The notes below the pieces were generated by a model. That model was given only the letters and a program-made list of their open reading frames with translations. It searched no databases and had not been told where the DNA came from. Source: an uncultured virus (IMG/VR IMGVR_UViG_2061766007_000514) (taxonomy: Duplodnaviria > Heunggongvirae > Uroviricota > Caudoviricetes). Taken from it: DNA of 20,000 nucleotides. The stretch lies in the IMG/VR virus record IMGVR_UViG_2061766007_000514; one strand, written 5' to 3'. Within the stretch, counting starts at the first letter, position 1. The number at the start of each line of letters is the position of its first letter. Made by a program: the position numbers and the translations under genes. This document shows positions 4,884 through 19,930 of the stretch, in pieces.

Positions 4884-6709
4884 CTAGTGACGTCTTCTTC
4901 CAGAACAATAGCAGACTTGATGCGAATCAGAGCACCAGAACAACGAGTTTCCAGCAGGCTCTTTTCCTGGTTGAAGTCAATATCGAACTGATTGAAGTGA
5001 GTGATCTCGCCACCCTTAGTAGAACCAACATTATAGTCGTTCATGTCAACAAAGATAGCAAGAAGCTTCTTAGTCGCGGCCTCAGTCGTAGCAGTCGCAG
5101 CGATCTCACGGGTCTTGTTAGCAAACTGCTCAACCTCTTCAATTGCGACAACATTCAGCGCTGCACGCAGCTCATCTTTGGTCTTATACATACGATGACC
5201 ATCGCGGTCACGAGCCAGGAGCATGATGTTGATAATATGCGGGTCAGCATACATCGTCAGACGACCGCTTCCCTTATACTGCTCACGCAGATAAAGCGCT
5301 TTCTGGATAATAGCCTCAGCATAGATGAAGTTCTCACCGAAATACTTCTCAGTGTCATCACCCTGAAGCTCTTCCGCCATCTGCTCAAAGTCCACATCAC
5401 CGTGAATAGTGAACAGCTCATCATCAGTCCAAATCGGGCGGATATGGGACGGGAAGATCTTATCCGGATCATCATCTTCACGCTCATCACCGATAAACAT
5501 CGCAAGAGCAAGAGTCTCATTCAGCTGGAGACGATCGATCTTATACTGATATGCAACATAGTCAAAGTCAGTCAGATCAACGATATCATCACGGTTAAGA
5601 GTGCTACGAACATACACAGTCTGCGGATCAGTCGTACGACGAGCCTCACTATACTTACCAGTCAGAGCCTTCGGATGACCCTTAACATAACCCTTAGCCT
5701 TCAGAGTATCGATACCGCGAATATCAACCTGACGGGTACGAATACGGCTAAACGGGGTCTTGTGGACGCCAGACATAACTCTGGTAACCCAACCCTGGTC
5801 ATAAGTGATCAGCTCAGGCTCACCAGGACGAACATCCTTAAACTCAGGGAACAGCAGTGCCAGACTCTCGTCGGTAAAACCAGCAACCGGAGCCACGTCG
5901 TCCTCATCATCATGCTGCAGATAATTCTCAGTATAAGTCTTGAAAGCTTCTCTAAACGAACCACAGCGCTTGGCATCGGTCAGAATCTTCTCCTGATCGG
6001 CATGGCAAATAACATTCCCAGACTGACGCTCATCAGTCTCAAATACATTGTGCTTCACGTTTTCTTCCTCCTCATTTTCATCAACGCCAGACTCTTCAAG
6101 TGCCTGACCAATAAGAGCATACATAACAGTCTTCTGCTCTTCATTCATAGAATCGATAACATCTTTGACAGTCTTTTCGCTGTCATTCTTCTTTTCGTCG
6201 GCCACTTCAGGCTCCTCCTCTTCTTTTTTCTGTTCTTCGGCATGCTGTAATTCAATTGCAGTTTCATTGACATAACCGAATACGCATTCATCTACTTCCT
6301 CGCCCTCACCATGAGCCATGACCTCTTCGATATAAGCTCCAGGATTTGCGCCAGCTAAAACAAGACTCACTTCACGAATCATACCATGAAGTACATCACT
6401 GCCTTTCTGCTGTAAGCGATTAGCATAGATAGACAATCCAGTCACATCACCATGCTGTACAAGAATTTTACCGGCCTGACCAGCTTCAGTGTCATTGAAC
6501 GATGCATAAGCATATACGCCATCTACTCGGTTTTCGAGCAGTGCATGCCCAAGAACATTCATCGGATCACTGTGATCATGATTCCACACCAGAGGAACCG
6601 TCTTACCATCACAATCCTTAAATGCATCCTTCCGGATAACACGACCGTCAGCGCATTTAAGGTCATTGCGAGTGGCATAACCGGCAAAGTCGCAGTTTTT
6701 GCTACTCAT
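4871..6709 (-). CDS. Prohead protease - scaffold - major capsid protein fusion
   Basis: Likely start ATG 6709 (MSSKNCDFAGYAT), overlapping the portal stop. HK97-type protease motifs (PLVWNHDH, GLSIYAN, IREVSLVLAGANPGA), acidic linker, then capsid domain (FDIDFNQEKSLLETRCSGAL). Confidence 0.92.
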   Translation of the reverse strand: MSSKNCDFAGYATRNDLKCADGRVIRKDAFKDCDGKTVPLVWNHDHSDPMNVLGHALLENRVDGVYAYASFNDTEAGQAGKILVQHGDVTGLSIYANRLQQKGSDVLHGMIREVSLVLAGANPGAYIEEVMAHGEGEEVDECVFGYVNETAIELQHAEEQKKEEEEPEVADEKKNDSEKTVKDVIDSMNEEQKTVMYALIGQALEESGVDENEEEENVKHNVFETDERQSGNVICHADQEKILTDAKRCGSFREAFKTYTENYLQHDDEDDVAPVAGFTDESLALLFPEFKDVRPGEPELITYDQGWVTRVMSGVHKTPFSRIRTRQVDIRGIDTLKAKGYVKGHPKALTGKYSEARRTTDPQTVYVRSTLNRDDIVDLTDFDYVAYQYKIDRLQLNETLALAMFIGDEREDDDPDKIFPSHIRPIWTDDELFTIHGDVDFEQMAEELQGDDTEKYFGENFIYAEAIIQKALYLREQYKGSGRLTMYADPHIINIMLLARDRDGHRMYKTKDELRAALNVVAIEEVEQFANKTREIAATATTEAATKKLLAIFVDMNDYNVGSTKGGEITHFNQFDIDFNQEKSLLETRCSGALIRIKSAIVLEEDVTSSNP

Positions 6710-7940
6710 TTTGATTTTTATCCTCCTCTTCTTCGCTCGTCCGGTCATTTGATTTATCCGGATCGGGGTCTGGCATATTACTATTACGAAGTTCATCCGC
6801 CCTTGGATCATCCGACGGTTTCAAACCAATAATCTGACGGAACTCATTACTGGACATAATTTCATTACGCGTCATCTTATCTGCAATTTCTGCCAGAGTA
6901 TTAACTGGGACAAGTTTGAATGGATCACGGAAGAACATTATATCCTGTCCACGAGTTCGAGCCGCCTGAGATAAGAATTTTCTCTTCATTTCATCACAGA
7001 TTGCAGAAATGATCGGCTCTATCGTTCTAGTATAATAGTTCATCATAGCTTCATCGGTTGCAGTACCATCCATGATCGCCTGTGTAATACCTAACTGGCT
7101 GTAAAGCATACTCGTAAGATACTCCACTTGACTCATTAATGTATTATCTACAGCACGATTAAGCTGTGTGATCTTTTCAGTCCCATCTGTATAAGCGATT
7201 CCATACTTGGATCCGCTTAACTGCCGTTCGATGTCCTTACGTCGTTCTTCAGCCTGATCTCGTTTGGTCTGAGTCTTAACAACATAAGGCAATTGAATAA
7301 TCAGATCCAGTTTCCCAGAACTATTATTCTCATCAAGAATATCTAAAAGATTAAGTTTACGAATTAATCGCTGCATCGTCGAGTTCGGCTCATTCATTAC
7401 TGAATAAAACGGATTCTCAATGATTGCACACATAGTTTTTGGAAGTGTTAAATCCTGTTTGCGTCCGGTTTTTTCATTGTATACACGCACCATAACATGC
7501 TCTGGATACCAATTAACTATCTTTGCTGTTCGCATTGATAAAATATCATAAGCTCCAGGTGAAATGTCCTTGTCTACATCTGTATCTGTATCAACCGGNN
7601 NNNNNNNNNNNNNNNNNNNNNNNNNNNNNNNNNNACGGCCAGTCTGATCAAGATTAGCAGAAAAACTCAGGCAGTCATTTAAACCAGAATTAATAATTTC
7701 TTTAAATCTTCCATTATCATCTATACGTACATGATGAACAGCTATAGAGGCAGCATCTGTAGCAATTCGATTATATACAGAAGTTACGATAGTCCGCTCT
7801 GTCCCTCGAGATAAGCGAATACGATCTGGACGATAGTAACTTCCACTAATATAAGTAGGTTTACCGATAGTTTCGGTAGGACTTCTACTTCGGAAAACAT
7901 TCCAAGCATTACGAAGCCTGGAAATAAGAGAAGTTTCCAT
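6702..7940 (-). CDS. Portal protein
   Basis: About 412 aa directly upstream of the protease/capsid gene; IVTSVYNRIATD, GKLDLIIQLPY, YYTRTIEPI, NEIMSSNEFRQIIG; contains one N-gap. Confidence 0.92.
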   Translation of the reverse strand: METSLISRLRNAWNVFRSRSPTETIGKPTYISGSYYRPDRIRLSRGTERTIVTSVYNRIATDAASIAVHHVRIDDNGRFKEIINSGLNDCLSFSANLDQTGRXXXXXXXXXXXXPVDTDTDVDKDISPGAYDILSMRTAKIVNWYPEHVMVRVYNEKTGRKQDLTLPKTMCAIIENPFYSVMNEPNSTMQRLIRKLNLLDILDENNSSGKLDLIIQLPYVVKTQTKRDQAEERRKDIERQLSGSKYGIAYTDGTEKITQLNRAVDNTLMSQVEYLTSMLYSQLGITQAIMDGTATDEAMMNYYTRTIEPIISAICDEMKRKFLSQAARTRGQDIMFFRDPFKLVPVNTLAEIADKMTRNEIMSSNEFRQIIGLKPSDDPRADELRNSNMPDPDPDKSNDRTSEEEEDKNQNE

Positions 7941-7975: not shown

Positions 7976-8284
7976 TTATTCAGTGTATTTCTTTAAATAC
8001 CACTGGATTCTAGCTGCTCTCTCCATATGTGCTTCATGTAAATAATCGTAGAATGCCTGCATAGCAGGAGGAGGATCTCCTTCTGTTTCACGATATGCTT
8101 TAATAAGTTTTACAATGGCGTTATGAAGATCATCCATATGGCCCATTTCATCTTTTGCATGTTTGTAAAACATATCAGAAATATCAGGATACTCATCCTT
8201 AACTCGAATGGCTTCTTTTATATATTCCTCGGCCCCGTTCAGTTCATCCTCGATCATTGCAGAAATATCTTTGATGATCTTCAT
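7976..8284 (-). CDS. Small helical ferritin-like-superfamily protein (cassette gene D)
   Basis: AGGAGG RBS; IEDELNGAEEY and DEMGH (ExxH) on successive helices, plus a His-rich third helix (YLHEAHMER). Confidence 0.6.
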   Translation of the reverse strand: MKIIKDISAMIEDELNGAEEYIKEAIRVKDEYPDISDMFYKHAKDEMGHMDDLHNAIVKLIKAYRETEGDPPPAMQAFYDYLHEAHMERAARIQWYLKKYTE

Positions 8285-8305
8285 CTGTTAACCTCCTGTG
8301 ATAAA

Positions 8306-8333
8306 GGGAGAAGAAGATTATACTCCCTCTCCC
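8306..8333 (-). promoter_or_regulatory. Intergenic RNA hairpin between cassette genes C and D
   Basis: Minus strand GGGAGAGGGAG-TATAAT-CTTCTTCTCCC; 11-bp stem with two G-U pairs valid only on the minus transcript; short TTT tail. Confidence 0.6.
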
Positions 8334-8340
8334 ACCTTGA

Positions 8341-8858
8341 TTAGCCANNNNNNNNNNNNNNNNNTACTTACCCAGCATAGTCAACAGATACTGAGACTGA
8401 TTATCCGCAGTAATCTGATTCTGCGCAGCATTAAGAGCAAACTGCGTATCCTGGAGACGATCCTGAAGCATCTGAGTCTTAATAGCGCAGCAACACTGAT
8501 CCAGATTGTAGCCAAGCTGAGCAATAGCAGCACCCTGCGTTGCAAAGCCCTGATTAATCGCCTGCGTGATCTGGTTGAAGCCCTGAATAGCGTTCACGCC
8601 AAGAGTATCAATCTGGCGAGCAACTTCATAATTGTTATTAGCACTGGAAAGAAGAATAGCCTGCTGATTCATGCCGCTAGTCTGAGCAGCAATGGCAGCG
8701 CTCAGATCTGCCTGAGTAACAGCATCGCCACGACCGCCCCAAGCACCATTCCCACCGAGAAACAGAAACAGAACGATAAGCCAGATCAGTCCATTACCGC
8801 CCATGTTGCCATCACCGAGTGCAGCCTTGATGTCACTGAGAGAGAAATTAGAATCCAT
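8341..8858 (-). CDS. Gly-rich membrane / coiled-coil protein with CCC motif (cassette gene C)
   Basis: AAAGGAG RBS; hydrophobic GLIWLIVLFLFLGG segment, Gln/Ala/Asn helical body, DQCCCAIK. The true stop is probably TAA at 8343-8341 after the N-gap (the track's extension to 8244 crosses the gap). Confidence 0.7.
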
Positions 8859-8887
8859 TGTTACATTGCTCCTTTGTAAAAAATTTA

Positions 8888-8908
8888 AAACAGCTCAATG
8901 AGCTGTTT
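8888..8908. promoter_or_regulatory. Perfect palindrome / hairpin between cassette genes B and C
   Basis: AAACAGCTCA-A-TGAGCTGTTT; followed on the minus strand by T-rich sequence and then the gene C RBS. Confidence 0.6.
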
Positions 8909-8917
8909 CATGCAAAA

Positions 8918-9169
8918 TTATTTAAGAAAATTCCTGAAACTGTCCACGTTAGCTTGTGCCTGCTGGTATAACTGCTGTTTCTGAGTTTCAGTCATACGCC
9001 CAGAGGCACAAAGAGAATCCACAATTGCTTTAGGATCTTTTCCTCGCATCATCTTTGCAAATTCAAGGAAGCTCATTCCTTTCGCGCTTCGTGGAACGTT
9101 TACTTGCTGTTGCGGTTGTGCCGCTTGCTTCTGATTCTGAGAACGCAACATCGACATAATCGGGTTCAC
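8918..9169 (-). CDS. Small Gln/Met-rich hypothetical protein (cassette gene B)
   Basis: GAGG RBS; MNPIMSML..FLEFAKMMRGKDPKAIVDSLCASGRMTETQKQQL. Confidence 0.7.
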   Translation of the reverse strand: MNPIMSMLRSQNQKQAAQPQQQVNVPRSAKGMSFLEFAKMMRGKDPKAIVDSLCASGRMTETQKQQLYQQAQANVDSFRNFLK

Positions 9170-9493
9170 GGTGCCTCTTCATCTCCTCTTCCAATTTTGC
9201 AATCCGCTCCTCAAGAGTAGCAACTCGTCTAGTCTCCTCATCTTCATGAATGGAAATATCTAAACCGGTGATTGTCTTGTAGCCAGCATCATCGGTCTTA
9301 ACATACCAAATAATCGGATCTGTTTCGTCCATGAGTAAGATCTCACTTGCTTTCGGCATGTCATAAGCATTTGCACCGGCTCNNNNNNNNNNNNNNNNNN
9401 NNNNNNNNNNNNNNNNNNNTACTGCATAAATGGATTATTTGAAGAACCCATAGAATTATTCTGCAGCATCTGTAACCAAGGATTGTTTACCAT
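9063..9493 (-). CDS. Hypothetical protein (cassette gene A); one gene split by an N-gap in the ORF track
   Basis: GGAGG RBS and ATG 9493 (MVNNPWLQ...). After the gap the frame reads AGANAYDMPKASEILLMDETDPIIWYVKTDDAGYKT...; C-terminal coiled coil (LEERIAKLEEEM). Confidence 0.7.
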
Positions 9494-9517
9494 TTTACTG
9501 CCTCCAAACGAGTTTAA

Positions 9518-10087
9518 TTACTGTCCAATAGAAAGTCTTCCAGTTCCTCGACGAACTTTAAACTGGTTTCCAATTACAACCCCATTCAAATTTCCATATC
9601 TCATTAATTCGTCGAAATATGTCATTCCTTTATGAGCATCACGGGCAATTTTAGTACTAGATACATCATAGCCAAGAGTATGCGCATTTGCCATCATCTG
9701 CCATGTTTTCTTTTCCATTTCTTCTAAATGACTATGACTATCTAGCATCTTTTTTAAATACTTAGTAGCTTTTTGACTAACTTTTTGCGCTCGCTTATCC
9801 TCTTGACCGTATTTGCCCATTTTATTTAAAGCTTTATTCGCGTATTTATTAGCTTTTTGTTTATAGGCCTCATAATCGCCTATAACATATGCCTGCTGTT
9901 TATCAAACTTATTTAAATCTCTTTGCAAATGCCGAGCACCACGGTCAGTCGGACCATACGTTCCACTATACCGTTTCCTACCGTCTGGAGTAAGAGATCC
10001 ATCTTCATTCTGCCAACGACGGATGCCCCAACGCTGACCTTTTATACCATAGTGAAATAATTCGCCATTTACTAATGTATAATCCAT
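9518..10087 (-). CDS. Basic protein with N-terminal ELxHxGxKGQRWGxRR motif (DUF7211-like, from memory), paralog 2
   Basis: MDYTLVNGELFHYGIKGQRWGIRRWQNEDGSLTPDG followed by a Lys-rich helical region. Confidence 0.75.
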   Translation of the reverse strand: MDYTLVNGELFHYGIKGQRWGIRRWQNEDGSLTPDGRKRYSGTYGPTDRGARHLQRDLNKFDKQQAYVIGDYEAYKQKANKYANKALNKMGKYGQEDKRAQKVSQKATKYLKKMLDSHSHLEEMEKKTWQMMANAHTLGYDVSSTKIARDAHKGMTYFDELMRYGNLNGVVIGNQFKVRRGTGRLSIGQ

Positions 10088-10099
10088 TTGTACTCATCC

Positions 10100-10546
10100 C
10101 TAAGCGCCTACTACTATATGAAGTTTTTTACTGCTATCATTGACATACATCTGCATAAATCGCTTACCACTCTCAACTTGCGCCGGATTGAGCTCTCTAG
10201 CATACTGTTTCTCCATCTTCTCATAAAATCGATTTGCCTTTTTTAAACTTCGAGCGTACTTCTTATGAGCGCGGCGATATTTCTGTGCAGTTCGAACTAA
10301 AGCATCATCAGATGTGTACCACCTACGAGATTTCTTCTTCAGTTTACCAATCGCATGCTCAGACTTAATATACATTTTATCTGCTTTTGACTGAATCCGA
10401 AGCAGTTTATCAGAAGCCTTTCTATAACGCTGATAACCTTCAGGAGTTAAAGAGCCATCCTCATTCTGATAACGGCGAACTCCCCAACGCTGGCCTTTTG
10501 TACCATGGTGATAGAGTTCACCATTAACTAACACATAATCACTCAT
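10100..10546 (-). CDS. Basic protein with N-terminal ELxHxGxKGQRWGxRR motif (DUF7211-like, from memory), paralog 1
   Basis: Likely start ATG 10546 (ATGA overlap with the TerL stop); MSDYVLVNGELYHHGTKGQRWGVRRYQNEDGSLTPEG. Confidence 0.75.
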   Translation of the reverse strand: MSDYVLVNGELYHHGTKGQRWGVRRYQNEDGSLTPEGYQRYRKASDKLLRIQSKADKMYIKSEHAIGKLKKKSRRWYTSDDALVRTAQKYRRAHKKYARSLKKANRFYEKMEKQYARELNPAQVESGKRFMQMYVNDSSKKLHIVVGA

Positions 10547-12294
10547 CCAAACGCCTCTCTGTTCACTTTCCAAGCAATGAAAGCATCCATCATACTTGCA
10601 ACAGGGTCAATCTTCTGCTCATAACGACGCTTCCAAAGCTTTCTATTACCATTACTATCCTCAATCGTTATACAATTACCCATGGCGAATTGCATTATGG
10701 ATTCATCAAATAATAAAAGCCGGTCCTCGGCCAACTTTCTCAGTTCACCAAGAGGCACCGACTCTGTTTTTACACCCTGTATAACTTTCTCAATTCCAAA
10801 TGGCCCATTTTCTTGAGCCCATCGATTGACAAACTCCTTAGCATTATACGGGTCATATCCAAAACAGCACACATCATACTCGTTATCGATAATATGCCGA
10901 TCTAGATCTTCATAGACTTCTTCTAGATCAAGTACTGTTCCATTCAGAACCATCAAACTACCTTCTCGTATGAACTCTTCATACTTACTTCGCATAGCCG
11001 CTGGCAATTTCATTAATGTCTGTTCAGATATGTAATTTCTTGTCTTAACTCCGAACTGACTACCAGGTAAAGGAAATAGAAATGTAAAGGAGCAGAAGTC
11101 ATCACCTTGAGAAAGGTCCGCACCAAGAGCGCATTGCATCTGCCAATAACTCTTAGGCGGATGAGGAATCGTTTGCTCGTAGGTAAAGAAGTAAGTATAA
11201 CCCTCCATCGGAATTCCAAATCTTTTAGCTAGAATATCATTCCGATTAGCAGGAGCTGCTTCCATTCTTTCTACATCGGCCTGATATGCCTCGTAGGAAA
11301 CACTTTGACCAATATTTGGATTTGCCTTAATCCAAAGATCAGGTCGGGCTACTTCTGATACATCGTCAAGCTTATACCACCAGATAGAAGTATGAATGGC
11401 ATTGTATTCGCCTTTTAAAATCTTCATAAGTTCCATTTTGATGGTATCACCAGGGCCATTCCGGACAGTTCCTTCACTGCTGGTCGCTACTATAAGGTAG
11501 TCGGGAATATTACCCTTACTAGCACCCTGCTCAATAGCACCGATAACATCCTCACGAATATCACCAGAAAGCCATTCATCAATTGTCGCGACTTTACAAC
11601 GTAACCCCTGAAGCTTATCAATACTCATTGGTCTGATACGAAGAATAGAACCATTCAAGAAATTCTGAATTCCCATCTTCGTAGATGCTAATTTCACTCG
11701 ATTAGCCTTAGAACCGGTTGTATTTTGAAGTGAGCCTTCCGTTAAAAACTGAAACAATGGTCCACGGCTCCGAGTAATAGCTGTTCGAAGAGGCGAAAGC
11801 ACTTCATCTGCCTGATCCATTGTCGGAGCAGTAGTAATCTGATCTGTTGTACTTAGATCAATGTTAAGAAATTGGTTATGGATGCAACTGTCGTAAATTG
11901 TCTTAGCTGCACCTCGACCAACAATAAGAATCTGTTTATTAATCAGTCTTCGCTTAATTCGTTTCCGCACATAATGTCCACCATGACCACTCGGATCAGG
12001 TTGGTAAACACTTCTTTCGATAAAATAATACCATCCGAAAATCTGTTCACCCCAAAGCTTGAAACTGTCCATTAATTCCAGATCGCTACCATCTGTCAGG
12101 GTTAATTCGTTCTCACAGCAAGCGATCCAACCTTCAACTGGATCAGGATCATAGTACACACCTGGATTTGCAATTAATTCATCGATGCGTTTCATCTCCA
12201 TAGCGACAGTATCGCATACAGGAATTTCGCCACGAATCACGGCCTCTCTAAATTGGCCATAGTATTTCGGAACAGCCGTATTAGAGAGTGACAT
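10543..12294 (-). CDS. terL: Terminase large subunit
   Basis: 583 aa; Walker A-like VGRGAAKT, Walker B ATIDEW, nuclease acidic motifs LGADLS and KIDPVASMMDA; AAAGGAG RBS. Confidence 0.95.
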   Translation of the reverse strand: MSLSNTAVPKYYGQFREAVIRGEIPVCDTVAMEMKRIDELIANPGVYYDPDPVEGWIACCENELTLTDGSDLELMDSFKLWGEQIFGWYYFIERSVYQPDPSGHGGHYVRKRIKRRLINKQILIVGRGAAKTIYDSCIHNQFLNIDLSTTDQITTAPTMDQADEVLSPLRTAITRSRGPLFQFLTEGSLQNTTGSKANRVKLASTKMGIQNFLNGSILRIRPMSIDKLQGLRCKVATIDEWLSGDIREDVIGAIEQGASKGNIPDYLIVATSSEGTVRNGPGDTIKMELMKILKGEYNAIHTSIWWYKLDDVSEVARPDLWIKANPNIGQSVSYEAYQADVERMEAAPANRNDILAKRFGIPMEGYTYFFTYEQTIPHPPKSYWQMQCALGADLSQGDDFCSFTFLFPLPGSQFGVKTRNYISEQTLMKLPAAMRSKYEEFIREGSLMVLNGTVLDLEEVYEDLDRHIIDNEYDVCCFGYDPYNAKEFVNRWAQENGPFGIEKVIQGVKTESVPLGELRKLAEDRLLLFDESIMQFAMGNCITIEDSNGNRKLWKRRYEQKIDPVASMMDAFIAWKVNREAFG

Positions 12295-12529: not shown

Positions 12530-13126
12530 TTACTTTTTCTTTTTGTTCTCTTTATTATCAGTATTTAAATATTTCTGAAATTTATTAGGATAATCCTTAA
12601 CGTCTTTAACTGTAGGTAAATTATACTTTGTGAATGTATTGATGACTCTGGCACTTGCATTCCAAACGTTAATACCACTATTAACAAATTTAGCGACCTT
12701 TTGCATAGTGTCAGCCGTCTTCTCTACATATTCCATGCCTGTTTTCTTTTTAGGCATTAACTCCGCAAGCGACTTTTCTTTATTATTTCTAAGAATTACG
12801 GCATCAATCTCTGCATTAGTTAAATGCTTTCTGTACTTGTAAGCTGAAGAAATATCTCCAGACTCAATAATCTGTTTTTTCTTTTCTTCAGTTAATTCGT
12901 CGTCTTTTTTCTCTTCTTCATGAAGTTTTTTAGGTAAGGTCTTTTGCTTATTTTTCTTAAATAAACCTCTATGTTTTCGCTTACTTTCATCTGCCTGAAA
13001 AGGTCTCTCCCCACTACCAAGAGGATATCTACCGGAACCTACCTTTGCGCCATCCCGTTTACTACGTCCGGAGTGCATTAAATAGAGTCGGCCATCTAAT
13101 GACTCTACAATCTGATACTCATCCAT
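12530..13126 (-). CDS. Lys-rich hypothetical protein with N-terminal LMHSG...GSGRYPLGSG motif
   Basis: ATG 13126 inside the AATTCAAAATG motif right after an N-gap; composition differs sharply from the upstream half of the track's 329-aa ORF. Confidence 0.65.
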   Translation of the reverse strand: MDEYQIVESLDGRLYLMHSGRSKRDGAKVGSGRYPLGSGERPFQADESKRKHRGLFKKNKQKTLPKKLHEEEKKDDELTEEKKKQIIESGDISSAYKYRKHLTNAEIDAVILRNNKEKSLAELMPKKKTGMEYVEKTADTMQKVAKFVNSGINVWNASARVINTFTKYNLPTVKDVKDYPNKFQKYLNTDNKENKKKK

Positions 13127-13134
13127 TTTGAATT

Positions 13135-13489
13135 NNNNNNNNNNNNNNNNNNNNNNNNNNNNNNNNNCGACGTTTAATCGCCATTCATATTCATTTATTT
13201 GCCTCTGAAAGCTTTCCAAAATTACGCTCGATGCTGGAGGATCGAACATCAACTTAACTTTCAGATACATATAAGTTTTTACCAGCCCTAACTTTTGCCC
13301 AGCCGGGAGAAATTCGTCCCATGTACTAAGTGCATCAGAGATCTCAAATCCACCCTTAGGACCAACACCAAGCTGGTGTAAAACCATAAAAGCACTATTA
13401 ATATCAGTTATGATGGCTTCATCAAAACTGTCATCTTCTTCTGTTAAACCAACATTTAACTTGATTGATGTTAAGATGCTATCTGTCAT
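13135..13489 (-). CDS. Putative head-tail connector/adaptor (stop probably inside the N-gap; end approximate)
   Basis: GAGGAGG RBS, ATG 13489; SILTSIKLNVG..FDEAIITDINSAFMVLHQLGVG..VKTYMYLKVKLMFDPP..EYEWRL helical pattern resembling gp6-like connectors. Confidence 0.6.
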
Positions 13490-13500
13490 GTTATCCTCCT

Positions 13501-13914
13501 CTAACTTCTCCAGGGACAAGTATCAAACCTGCTCCTCTGTATCACGGGAGGAGGAAGCAGTCTCTCATCGCCATAATGTATTGCGTTATGGGTTCTACGA
13601 GTTGTACAAATAAGATAGTCAGGGTTATACACCTCTGGCACAAGTTCAACCAGATCCGTAAGTTTTACTGGATTCATATGATGTATAATAATTAACCCAT
13701 AAATGTCATAACCTTCCGAGGCCAGATCACAGCCAAGATCACGAACTATGACCTGGTCTCTTACGCGCTTCCACTCACTTGAATGATAAAATTTCTGATT
13801 CATCCACCGATCGAAACCAAACGTTTCTTCAGCAACTCTACCATCTAGTTTGAGATAAGCGAAGCGTTCTTCAAAGGTTGGGAACTGGATTAGTTCAGAA
13901 TATGTCCTCATCAT
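13501..13914 (-). CDS. Terminase-associated HNH endonuclease
   Basis: FYHSSEWKRVRDQVIVRDLGCD..IIIHHMNP..NPDYLICTTRRTHNAIHY; likely start MMRTYS at 13914/13911. Confidence 0.85.
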   Translation of the reverse strand: MMRTYSELIQFPTFEERFAYLKLDGRVAEETFGFDRWMNQKFYHSSEWKRVRDQVIVRDLGCDLASEGYDIYGLIIIHHMNPVKLTDLVELVPEVYNPDYLICTTRRTHNAIHYGDERLLPPPVIQRSRFDTCPWRS

Positions 13915-19756: not shown

Positions 19757-19930
19757 CAGCAGTACTTATCAGAACTTATGGGACCTTTTCCTCTTGAAAG
19801 GAGAGACTTTGGAGGCAGACACAAACACTATAGGCAGAAATTTTGGAGGCAGTTTCTGATACACAACTAGNNNNNNNNNNNNNNNNNNNNNNNCGATTTA
19901 AGGCCCCATAAGCCCTGATAAGTACTGCTG
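19757..19930 (-). ncRNA. Putative structured RNA/leader with anti-Shine-Dalgarno loops
   Basis: 31-bp inverted repeat (19757-19787 and 19900-19930) whose 3 mismatches are all G-U on the minus transcript; internal CUGCCUCCAAA x2 and CUCUCCUUUCAA. Confidence 0.6.

Follow-up and report, generated by a model that had tools for sequence, protein, structure and literature searches.

A mobile gene module of gut viruses that pairs a predicted membrane-tethered rod with a candidate half-ferritin

The DNA that we analysed, a stretch of 20,000 nucleotides referred to hereafter as the window, is the final 20 kb of a complete 64,779-base virus record and represents its late arm, which is encoded on the minus strand. 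Genes are arranged here in the order terminase (10543-12294), two DUF7211-type genes, the four small genes A to D, and then portal (6702-7940). In agreement with the initial annotation of this DNA, which had noticed four co-oriented small genes without resemblance to head or tail proteins, all four open reading frames are present on the minus strand between the DUF7211-type genes and the portal gene (Table 1), and their PHROG matches at E<0.01 are all to families of unknown function. The description given there was likewise accurate for the length of B and its overlap with A, for the Gly-flanked hydrophobic segment and the QCCC sequence of C, and for the two hairpins that bracket gene C.

A masked run inside gene A breaks its frame as displayed, and we therefore take the continuity of A in the genome from single-ORF homologues such as that of locus L001. 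The last residues of C are masked in the window as well; the protein collection gives window C as a protein of 174 aa. The G+C content of the block is 43.2% versus 40.5% for the genome, and elsewhere in the same genome we detected no further copy of the block genes, the regulator gene or a head gene. Several genes on either side of the terminase in the window (9518-10573 and 12530-13519) carry a short DUF7211-type motif, and the ORF at 12530-13519 resembles two genes fused across a masked run.

Table 1. Coordinates of the block genes and their associated features in the window.
Feature	Position	Strand	Description
Gene A ribosome-binding region	9497..9508	-	Exact 12-nt complement of 19842-19853 in the structured element near the genome end
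Gene A	9063..9493	-	phrog_21718-related; low-complexity N-terminus, small beta-alpha-beta-beta-beta domain, coiled-coil helix
Gene B	8918..9169	-	83 aa; Met/Gln/Asn-rich, helical; overlaps 3' end of A; phrog_22984 (E=2.5e-9)
Hairpin between B and C	8886..8910	-	Perfect inverted repeat plus T-rich run; -13.3 kcal/mol (fold energy alone); terminator-like or stabilising
Gene C	8340..8858 (3' end approximate)	-	phrog_16490-related (E=2.7e-8); headless short form; short Gly-flanked hydrophobic segment, beta-layer-like VTQAD motif, polar 11-residue-type coiled coil, CCC
Hairpin between C and D	8306..8333	-	11 bp with G-U pairs, weak U-tract after it; -18.5 kcal/mol (fold energy alone); likely a leaky terminator
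Gene D	7976..8284	-	102 aa; three helices, one ferritin half-site (E14, Y21, E46, H49); plus H54 and H83

The A-B-C-D block is a real, mobile and portable gene module. Three scans with C, one of which kept 80 of 173 loci, gave 98 loci, and after 18 shortened and 4 duplicate loci had been dropped, a C-anchored set of 76 non-redundant loci remained; since our locus sets overlap and are related by descent, the counts given here and below do not represent independent events. B accompanies C in all 76 loci, D in 72 and A in 57, with A, B and D together in 53, and the idea of a self-contained module advanced in the initial annotation is thus borne out as far as the co-occurrence of the four genes is concerned. 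A gene for a sigma-region-4-type HTH protein (R) is found in 33 of these loci. The prevailing gene order is ABCD (27 loci), followed by RABCD (17), RBCD (15), DABC (6) and BCD (4), while ABC (3), CDAB (2), RABC (1) and ABDC (1) are rarer; B overlaps A in 69 of 71 loci. As the gene order varies and most loci lie away from terminase and portal genes, one or the other of which is inside only 16 of the 76, the position of the block in the window is incidental, and our data do not support its association with the interval between terminase and portal. Among the 119 flanking ORFs scanned out of 133, 20 belong to lysis families (at 19 loci), one is a helicase and 53 are without a family; many others match head, packaging or tail genes. 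Cellular genomes rarely carry the block: in a pattern-limited scan of a collection of 185,579 of them, it was encountered at 5 loci, all metagenome-assembled.

A and B are separated from C by about 1 to 5 kb in L007, L021, L039, L052 and L080, and the block consequently tolerates splitting between B and C. Loci that lack A (L010, L013-L016, L018 and others) often possess, in its place, a conserved ORF of about 45 aa between R and B with a G-E-C-F-Y end motif, and a ClpP-like protease gene flanks the block at L006:7033-7656 and L044:6344-6964. Searches of Pfam, NCBIfam and PHROGs did not place A, B or C in any named family. In the literature searched, we found neither a description of the module nor a system that combines these parts, although a 2023 hendecad survey may list the C family.

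Protein D is likely a half-ferritin that binds iron. In the 203 unique D sequences that we gathered by similarity, E14, Y21, E46 and H49 are invariant, and H54 and H83 are present in 181 and 182 of them, respectively. One half-set of the ligands that characterise the ferritin superfamily (E...ExxH with a tyrosine at E+7) is thus present in 203/203 sequences. The best solved relative of the D profile is bacterioferritin 9qq4 (E=1.4e-8), ferritin-type entries dominate the best 60 of 85 matches, and in the ESM Atlas the D clusters are labelled rubrerythrin-like. Since the ligand set is the same as that of EncFtn, D should work like a half-ferritin, and we predict from these structural precedents that it dimerises into a di-iron site. 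The motifs reported for D in the initial annotation can be seen as E14-x6-Y21 and E46-x-x-H49, but the two helices claimed there are three in the structural model (pLDDT 95), and the chain of 102 aa with its single ExxH does not contain a four-helix bundle of its own. Support for the ferritin-like reading comes from the half-site and the profile match, whereas the monomer model is a generic three-helix bundle; fold searches with it returned other such bundles, and no Foldseek match was significant. This monomer search leaves room for a ferritin-type dimer, the face of which could, judging from the model, be blocked by the third helix. By Pfam score, D is not a member of the EncFtn or Coat F families: window D has no match to PF22277 (EncFtn), with the best variant at 19.1 bits versus a gathering threshold of 27, and none to Coat_F (PF07875) at E<=0.5, with the best variant at 22.5 bits versus 25.7. 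No encapsulin was seen among the 119 flanking ORFs scanned.

For C, we found 1,707 relatives. The CCC sequence is kept in 90 of 91 unique C sequences, and the spacings between conserved anchors of the protein vary in a highly regular manner, the one being 26 residues (66 sequences) or 15 (1), the other 32 (62), 21 (7) or 43 (1), so that every indel counted measures 11 residues; the hydrophobicity period of the coil is 3.64 (73 sequences). With a relaxed pattern of our own for the aliphatic-A/V-T-x-x-D/E motif that caps beta-layer coiled coils, a beta-layer-like motif is present before the coil in 39 of 91 C sequences versus 16 of 612 background windows, and both C and A possess such a motif capping a coiled coil. 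With one exception, all beta-layer proteins listed in PMC4786415 are homotrimers. By this rule, the motif in C argues for a trimer, and C is likely a three-stranded rod. Neither a fibre nor a spike was found when the C profile was compared with solved structures (the best E value, 0.004, was to unrelated helical proteins), and the ESM Atlas search with C retrieved unnamed viral clusters only. A likeness of C to class I fusion proteins or R-bodies, which we also considered, has no Pfam or PDB support.

The initial annotation had viewed C as a membrane-type coiled coil, and the conservation of its hydrophobic segment and of its 11-residue coil features in sequence agrees with this view. A hydrophobic window above 1.6 occurs in 78 of 91 C sequences, in none of the A (64) or B (88) sequences and in a single one of 83 D sequences; being confined almost entirely to C, this feature makes A, B and D look cytoplasmic. 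The unbroken hydrophobic core of C comprises 9-14 residues in 80 of 91 sequences, few for a helix that crosses the membrane. In 62 of 80 sequences, the net charge that follows the segment is more positive than that preceding it, a bias that would place the rod inside, and the fusion to a B-type motif described below would place the N-terminus inside as well; the two are compatible only with a segment that enters the membrane without crossing it. C is likely tethered to the inner face of the host membrane via this short hydrophobic segment, a topology that we infer from sequence features. In the short form, C is without cysteine in its last 35 residues (0/91).

The AlphaFold model of A, made on the homologue from L001, comprises a beta-alpha-beta-beta-beta domain (pLDDT 94-98) and a C-terminal helix, and in this model the compact beta domain and the coiled coil that had been ascribed to A can be recognised. 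The beta-layer-like motif, again by our relaxed pattern, is present in 33 of 64 A sequences versus 44 of 612 background windows. Searches with the A fold gave unnamed viral homologues and PDB entries at background level only (best Z 4.1), among them tailspike adaptors and the collagen XV trimerisation domain; the latter (3n3f; Z 3.7, rmsd 4.4, 50/53 aligned) and the Mtd-type 1yu0 (Z 3.2) are tied with SH2 fragments. We regard A as likely to be a trimeric adaptor. Neither A, B nor C has a relevant PDB profile match to virion head or tail proteins.

B is rich in Met, Gln and Asn, with a Met content of 8.5% versus 3.3% in terminases, and gave no significant PDB profile match. Its C-terminal motif, of which window B represents a subtype with a degenerate version, recurs just before the hydrophobic segment of C from viruses of Bacteroidetes and archaea. 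When a profile was built from 21 of these Bacteroidetes and archaeal C segments, chosen after the likeness had been spotted by eye, B ORFs occupied ranks 1-14 of 5,421 ORFs (95 of which are B; best E 6.5e-4), and a separate A or B was found in 0 of 80 Bacteroidetes-type loci. We take the fusion as a hint that B acts at the N-terminal end of C, and B is likely a partner of the hydrophobic N-terminus of C, for which it may serve as a chaperone.

Some of the regulatory features that had been proposed for the block recur outside the window. A hairpin equivalent to that between C and D was found in 23 of 76 loci, as judged against mononucleotide shuffles. It follows C in 14 of 17 loci in which the C-D gap is at least 35 nt but in only 2 of 48 where the gap is shorter, and the suggestion of the initial annotation that the expression of C is tuned separately thus receives partial support. 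The ribosome-binding region of A had been named as a target of an RNA encoded at 19757-19930, and the exact 12-nt complementarity listed in Table 1 is in line with this prediction. Of 103 SD-bearing leaders in the genome, 9 match the terminal element over at least 12 nt, and any leader match of at least 12 nt arose with 3 of 300 shuffled versions of the element. The other 8 sites of the leader class to which A belongs lie in the non-structural arm, but two late genes match as well over 11-12 nt. The element itself contains two copies of one anti-RBS core and one copy of another, complementary to two leader classes.

When loci were collected with D instead of C, 80 of 161 viral and 80 of 407 metagenome loci were taken, and after removal of short (4 + 32) and duplicate (13 + 3) loci, 63 + 45 = 108 remained, in sets that overlap each other and the C-anchored set. 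C is near D in 47 of the 63 viral and 41 of the 45 metagenome loci (88/108). In 18 of the other 20, the neighbour of D comes from a second rod family, whose members combine a hydrophobic, Gly-rich N-terminus with a coiled coil and cysteines and are accompanied by a helical protein, with D following; the profile of this family was seeded from 6 of its own loci. The second rod has no detectable homology to C (probability under 1%), so that D is paired with C or with an unrelated rod in 106 of 108 loci and is alone in 2. L328:2008-3309, L319:2167-3309 and L408:1554-2768 are examples of the second cassette, which consists of an HTH gene, the rod, the helical protein and D, and for which no PHROG below E 0.001 was found. 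In C. perfringens phage HMD-PC1, a gene for a 175-aa protein lies a few genes after C, and its best matches are all ferritins (E=0.009).

C also exists in a long form, which is homologous to the short one (98.6%, E=1.3e-15) and is found in human-gut phages, lytic C. perfringens phages, crAss-like phages, Bacteroides phage C3_41T2LP and two viruses of Methanomassiliicoccales. Among 50,697 records, all annotated long-C matches (43 and 35) come from gut samples or gut-dwelling hosts, and C relatives are abundant in gut viromes, where two long types are estimated to occur in about 890 and 1,500 stored stretches. Long C possesses a Cys-rich tail (44/44 and 51/51) and is followed by a beta-rich head gene in 76/80 and 80/80 loci. 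No head gene was found beside short C in 98 loci, except for one opposite-strand match over gene A. The link between tail and head is imperfect, as 9 D-anchored loci have a Cys tail without a match to our narrow head profiles. D was found in none of 160 long-form loci, and an intermediate, L269, carries A, B, C, head and D together; because D is missing from most long-form cassettes, the family as a whole does not have iron handling at its core. In the C. perfringens phages and in C3_41T2LP, the block lies among replication and recombination genes. An HNH-type endonuclease gene directly precedes C at L104:4086-4709 and L107:4270-4890, its place in phage CPD1 being between B and C. In the Methanomassiliicoccales viruses (L105:3878-6479 and L106:3860-6974), a large protein that by eye resembles a surface adhesin with repeats is encoded close after C, and in L105 a reverse transcriptase adjoins a tail gene.

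Taken as a whole, these data lead us to a tentative model in which the module is a host-membrane device for iron and oxygen handling, built from the C rod, its partners A and B, and the di-iron site of D. With viruses confined to anaerobic gut hosts, iron/oxygen handling at the membrane is the least strained function. C would assemble in the cytoplasm into a three-stranded rod, and its short hydrophobic segment, probably shielded by B, would tether this rod to the host membrane from within; A and B probably assist in its assembly. D would dimerise into a di-iron site and handle Fe(II), oxygen or peroxide beside the cysteine ring of the rod, and the module may in this way help the infected anaerobic cell to survive oxidative stress. 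We infer the trimers of C and A and the dimer of D from established structural rules; the topology at the membrane, the chaperone role of B, the contact of D with C and the protective role are proposals that we derive from the model.

The neighbours of the block are mostly late genes, with flanking ORFs of lysis families and many of head or tail type, and this would suit a rather different scenario, in which C forms a cytoplasmic fibre or coat that is released by lysis, becomes cross-linked through cysteines in air and shelters or clusters virions, with D as an antioxidant passenger. Fibres on the surface of spores provide an analogy for such a shelter. The Cys-rich tails and head gene of the long forms fit this scenario, and use of the block across host domains points to an environmental and not a host-specific need; however, the window form has neither the tail nor the head gene, and with the block placed among replication and recombination genes in some phages, we hold a protective coat to be rather unlikely. 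Still less probable, in our judgement, is an accessory fibre or spike made of C with A on the head or collar of the virion. Trimeric-rod features are common in phage fibres (PMC4786415), tailspikes are among the weak best structure matches of A, and crAss-like homologues of C are annotated as 'spike protein/glycoprotein' or 'outer capsid protein/viral fiber'. These labels come, however, without a supporting citation, and five terms looked for in the main text of PMC7886860 were all absent from it; homologues of A occur in sipho-, myo- and podoviruses, three types that have no docking site in common, the N-terminus of C is hydrophobic, and its profile finds no solved fibre or spike.

That the block is often directly beside endolysin or holin genes (19 loci), frequently has its own HTH gene and uses for A a leader class otherwise typical of the non-structural arm would also be compatible with a membrane switch or guard that serves superinfection exclusion, counter-defence or redox-timed lysis, with D, whose ligands are invariant, as the sensor of oxygen or iron and C as the effector at the membrane. 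We consider this proposition unlikely, as none of the proteins is similar to a named family in Pfam, NCBIfam or PHROGs and as a long rod that bears a head in most relatives has the look of a structural and not of a regulatory element. The initial annotation had put forward a manipulation of host sporulation or of the spore coat, in which D would be a protein of the Coat F type. One short D variant does match Coat_F below the cut-off (E=1.3e-4), and several hosts are Clostridia, but window D does not match, and the distribution of C relatives over viruses of Clostridia, Bacteroidetes and gut archaea, including those of Bacteroides and Methanomassiliicoccales, speaks against this proposal. Bacteroides and methanogenic archaea do not form endospores. 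Moreover, when 401 genomes were sampled from the phylum to which one carrier genome belongs, phrog_16490 was present in only 2 of them, and thus is not a captured host sporulation gene; we judge a role in sporulation to be very improbable.

Iron/oxygen handling at the host membrane hence stays our preferred reading, and it can be extended, in a form that we regard as quite doubtful, to an oxygen-exposure kit that has gone unrecognised in gut viruses of Firmicutes, Bacteroidetes and archaea. A tethered trimeric rod with a cysteine ring and an interchangeable half-ferritin would sense or detoxify oxygen and lock in air into a protective scaffold for the infected cell or the viral progeny. If true, this would be a viral answer to the problem that spores solve. 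The block may bear on the question of how phages that infect strict anaerobes withstand oxygen on their way from host to host. C relatives are very common in gut viromes, and public annotations call them spike without cited support. The block is a small, expressible gene set, and the cultured pair of Bacteroides phage C3_41T2LP and B. uniformis, although it has the long form without D, offers a system for testing this question.

Of the known systems, the long-form gut-phage cassette (phrog_21718, 22984, 16490, 20016 and 28802) is the one with homologous A, B and C genes in the same order as in the window; it has the Cys-rich tail and the head gene that the window form lacks, D replaces its other helical genes, and it is annotated as 'spike protein' in crAss-like phages. 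STI1/HOP DP-repeat domains bind hydrophobic helices. B is Met-rich and has NP/DP helix breaks, and 3 of 44 members match the STI1-type PF17830 below threshold (best E 0.012), which is a lead and not membership. Trimeric beta-layer coiled coils, known from MPN010, DUF1640 membrane proteins and phage fibres, resemble A and C through motifs at the start of the coil (YVTKxE-type in A, YATxxD-type in C) and share with C the 11-residue periodicity (PMC4786415). A and C have no sequence similarity to these families, and C differs from them by its N-terminal anchor, its invariant CCC and its three partner genes. In EncFtn of Rhodospirillum rubrum, the metal site is formed by E32, Y39, E62 and H65 of two chains, each with two long helices (PMC5012862), and these residues correspond in type, and closely in spacing, to E14, Y21, E46 and H49 of D. 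As in EncFtn, the first ligand of D is preceded by an acidic residue, which is present in 196 of 203 sequences. D differs by its third helix, by the conserved H54 and H83 and by a glutamate spacing of 32 instead of 30. Unlike EncFtn, D has no encapsulin in view, and its partner genes encode rods; a half-ferritin with three helices that is bound to a rod would place the ferritin site in a new setting.
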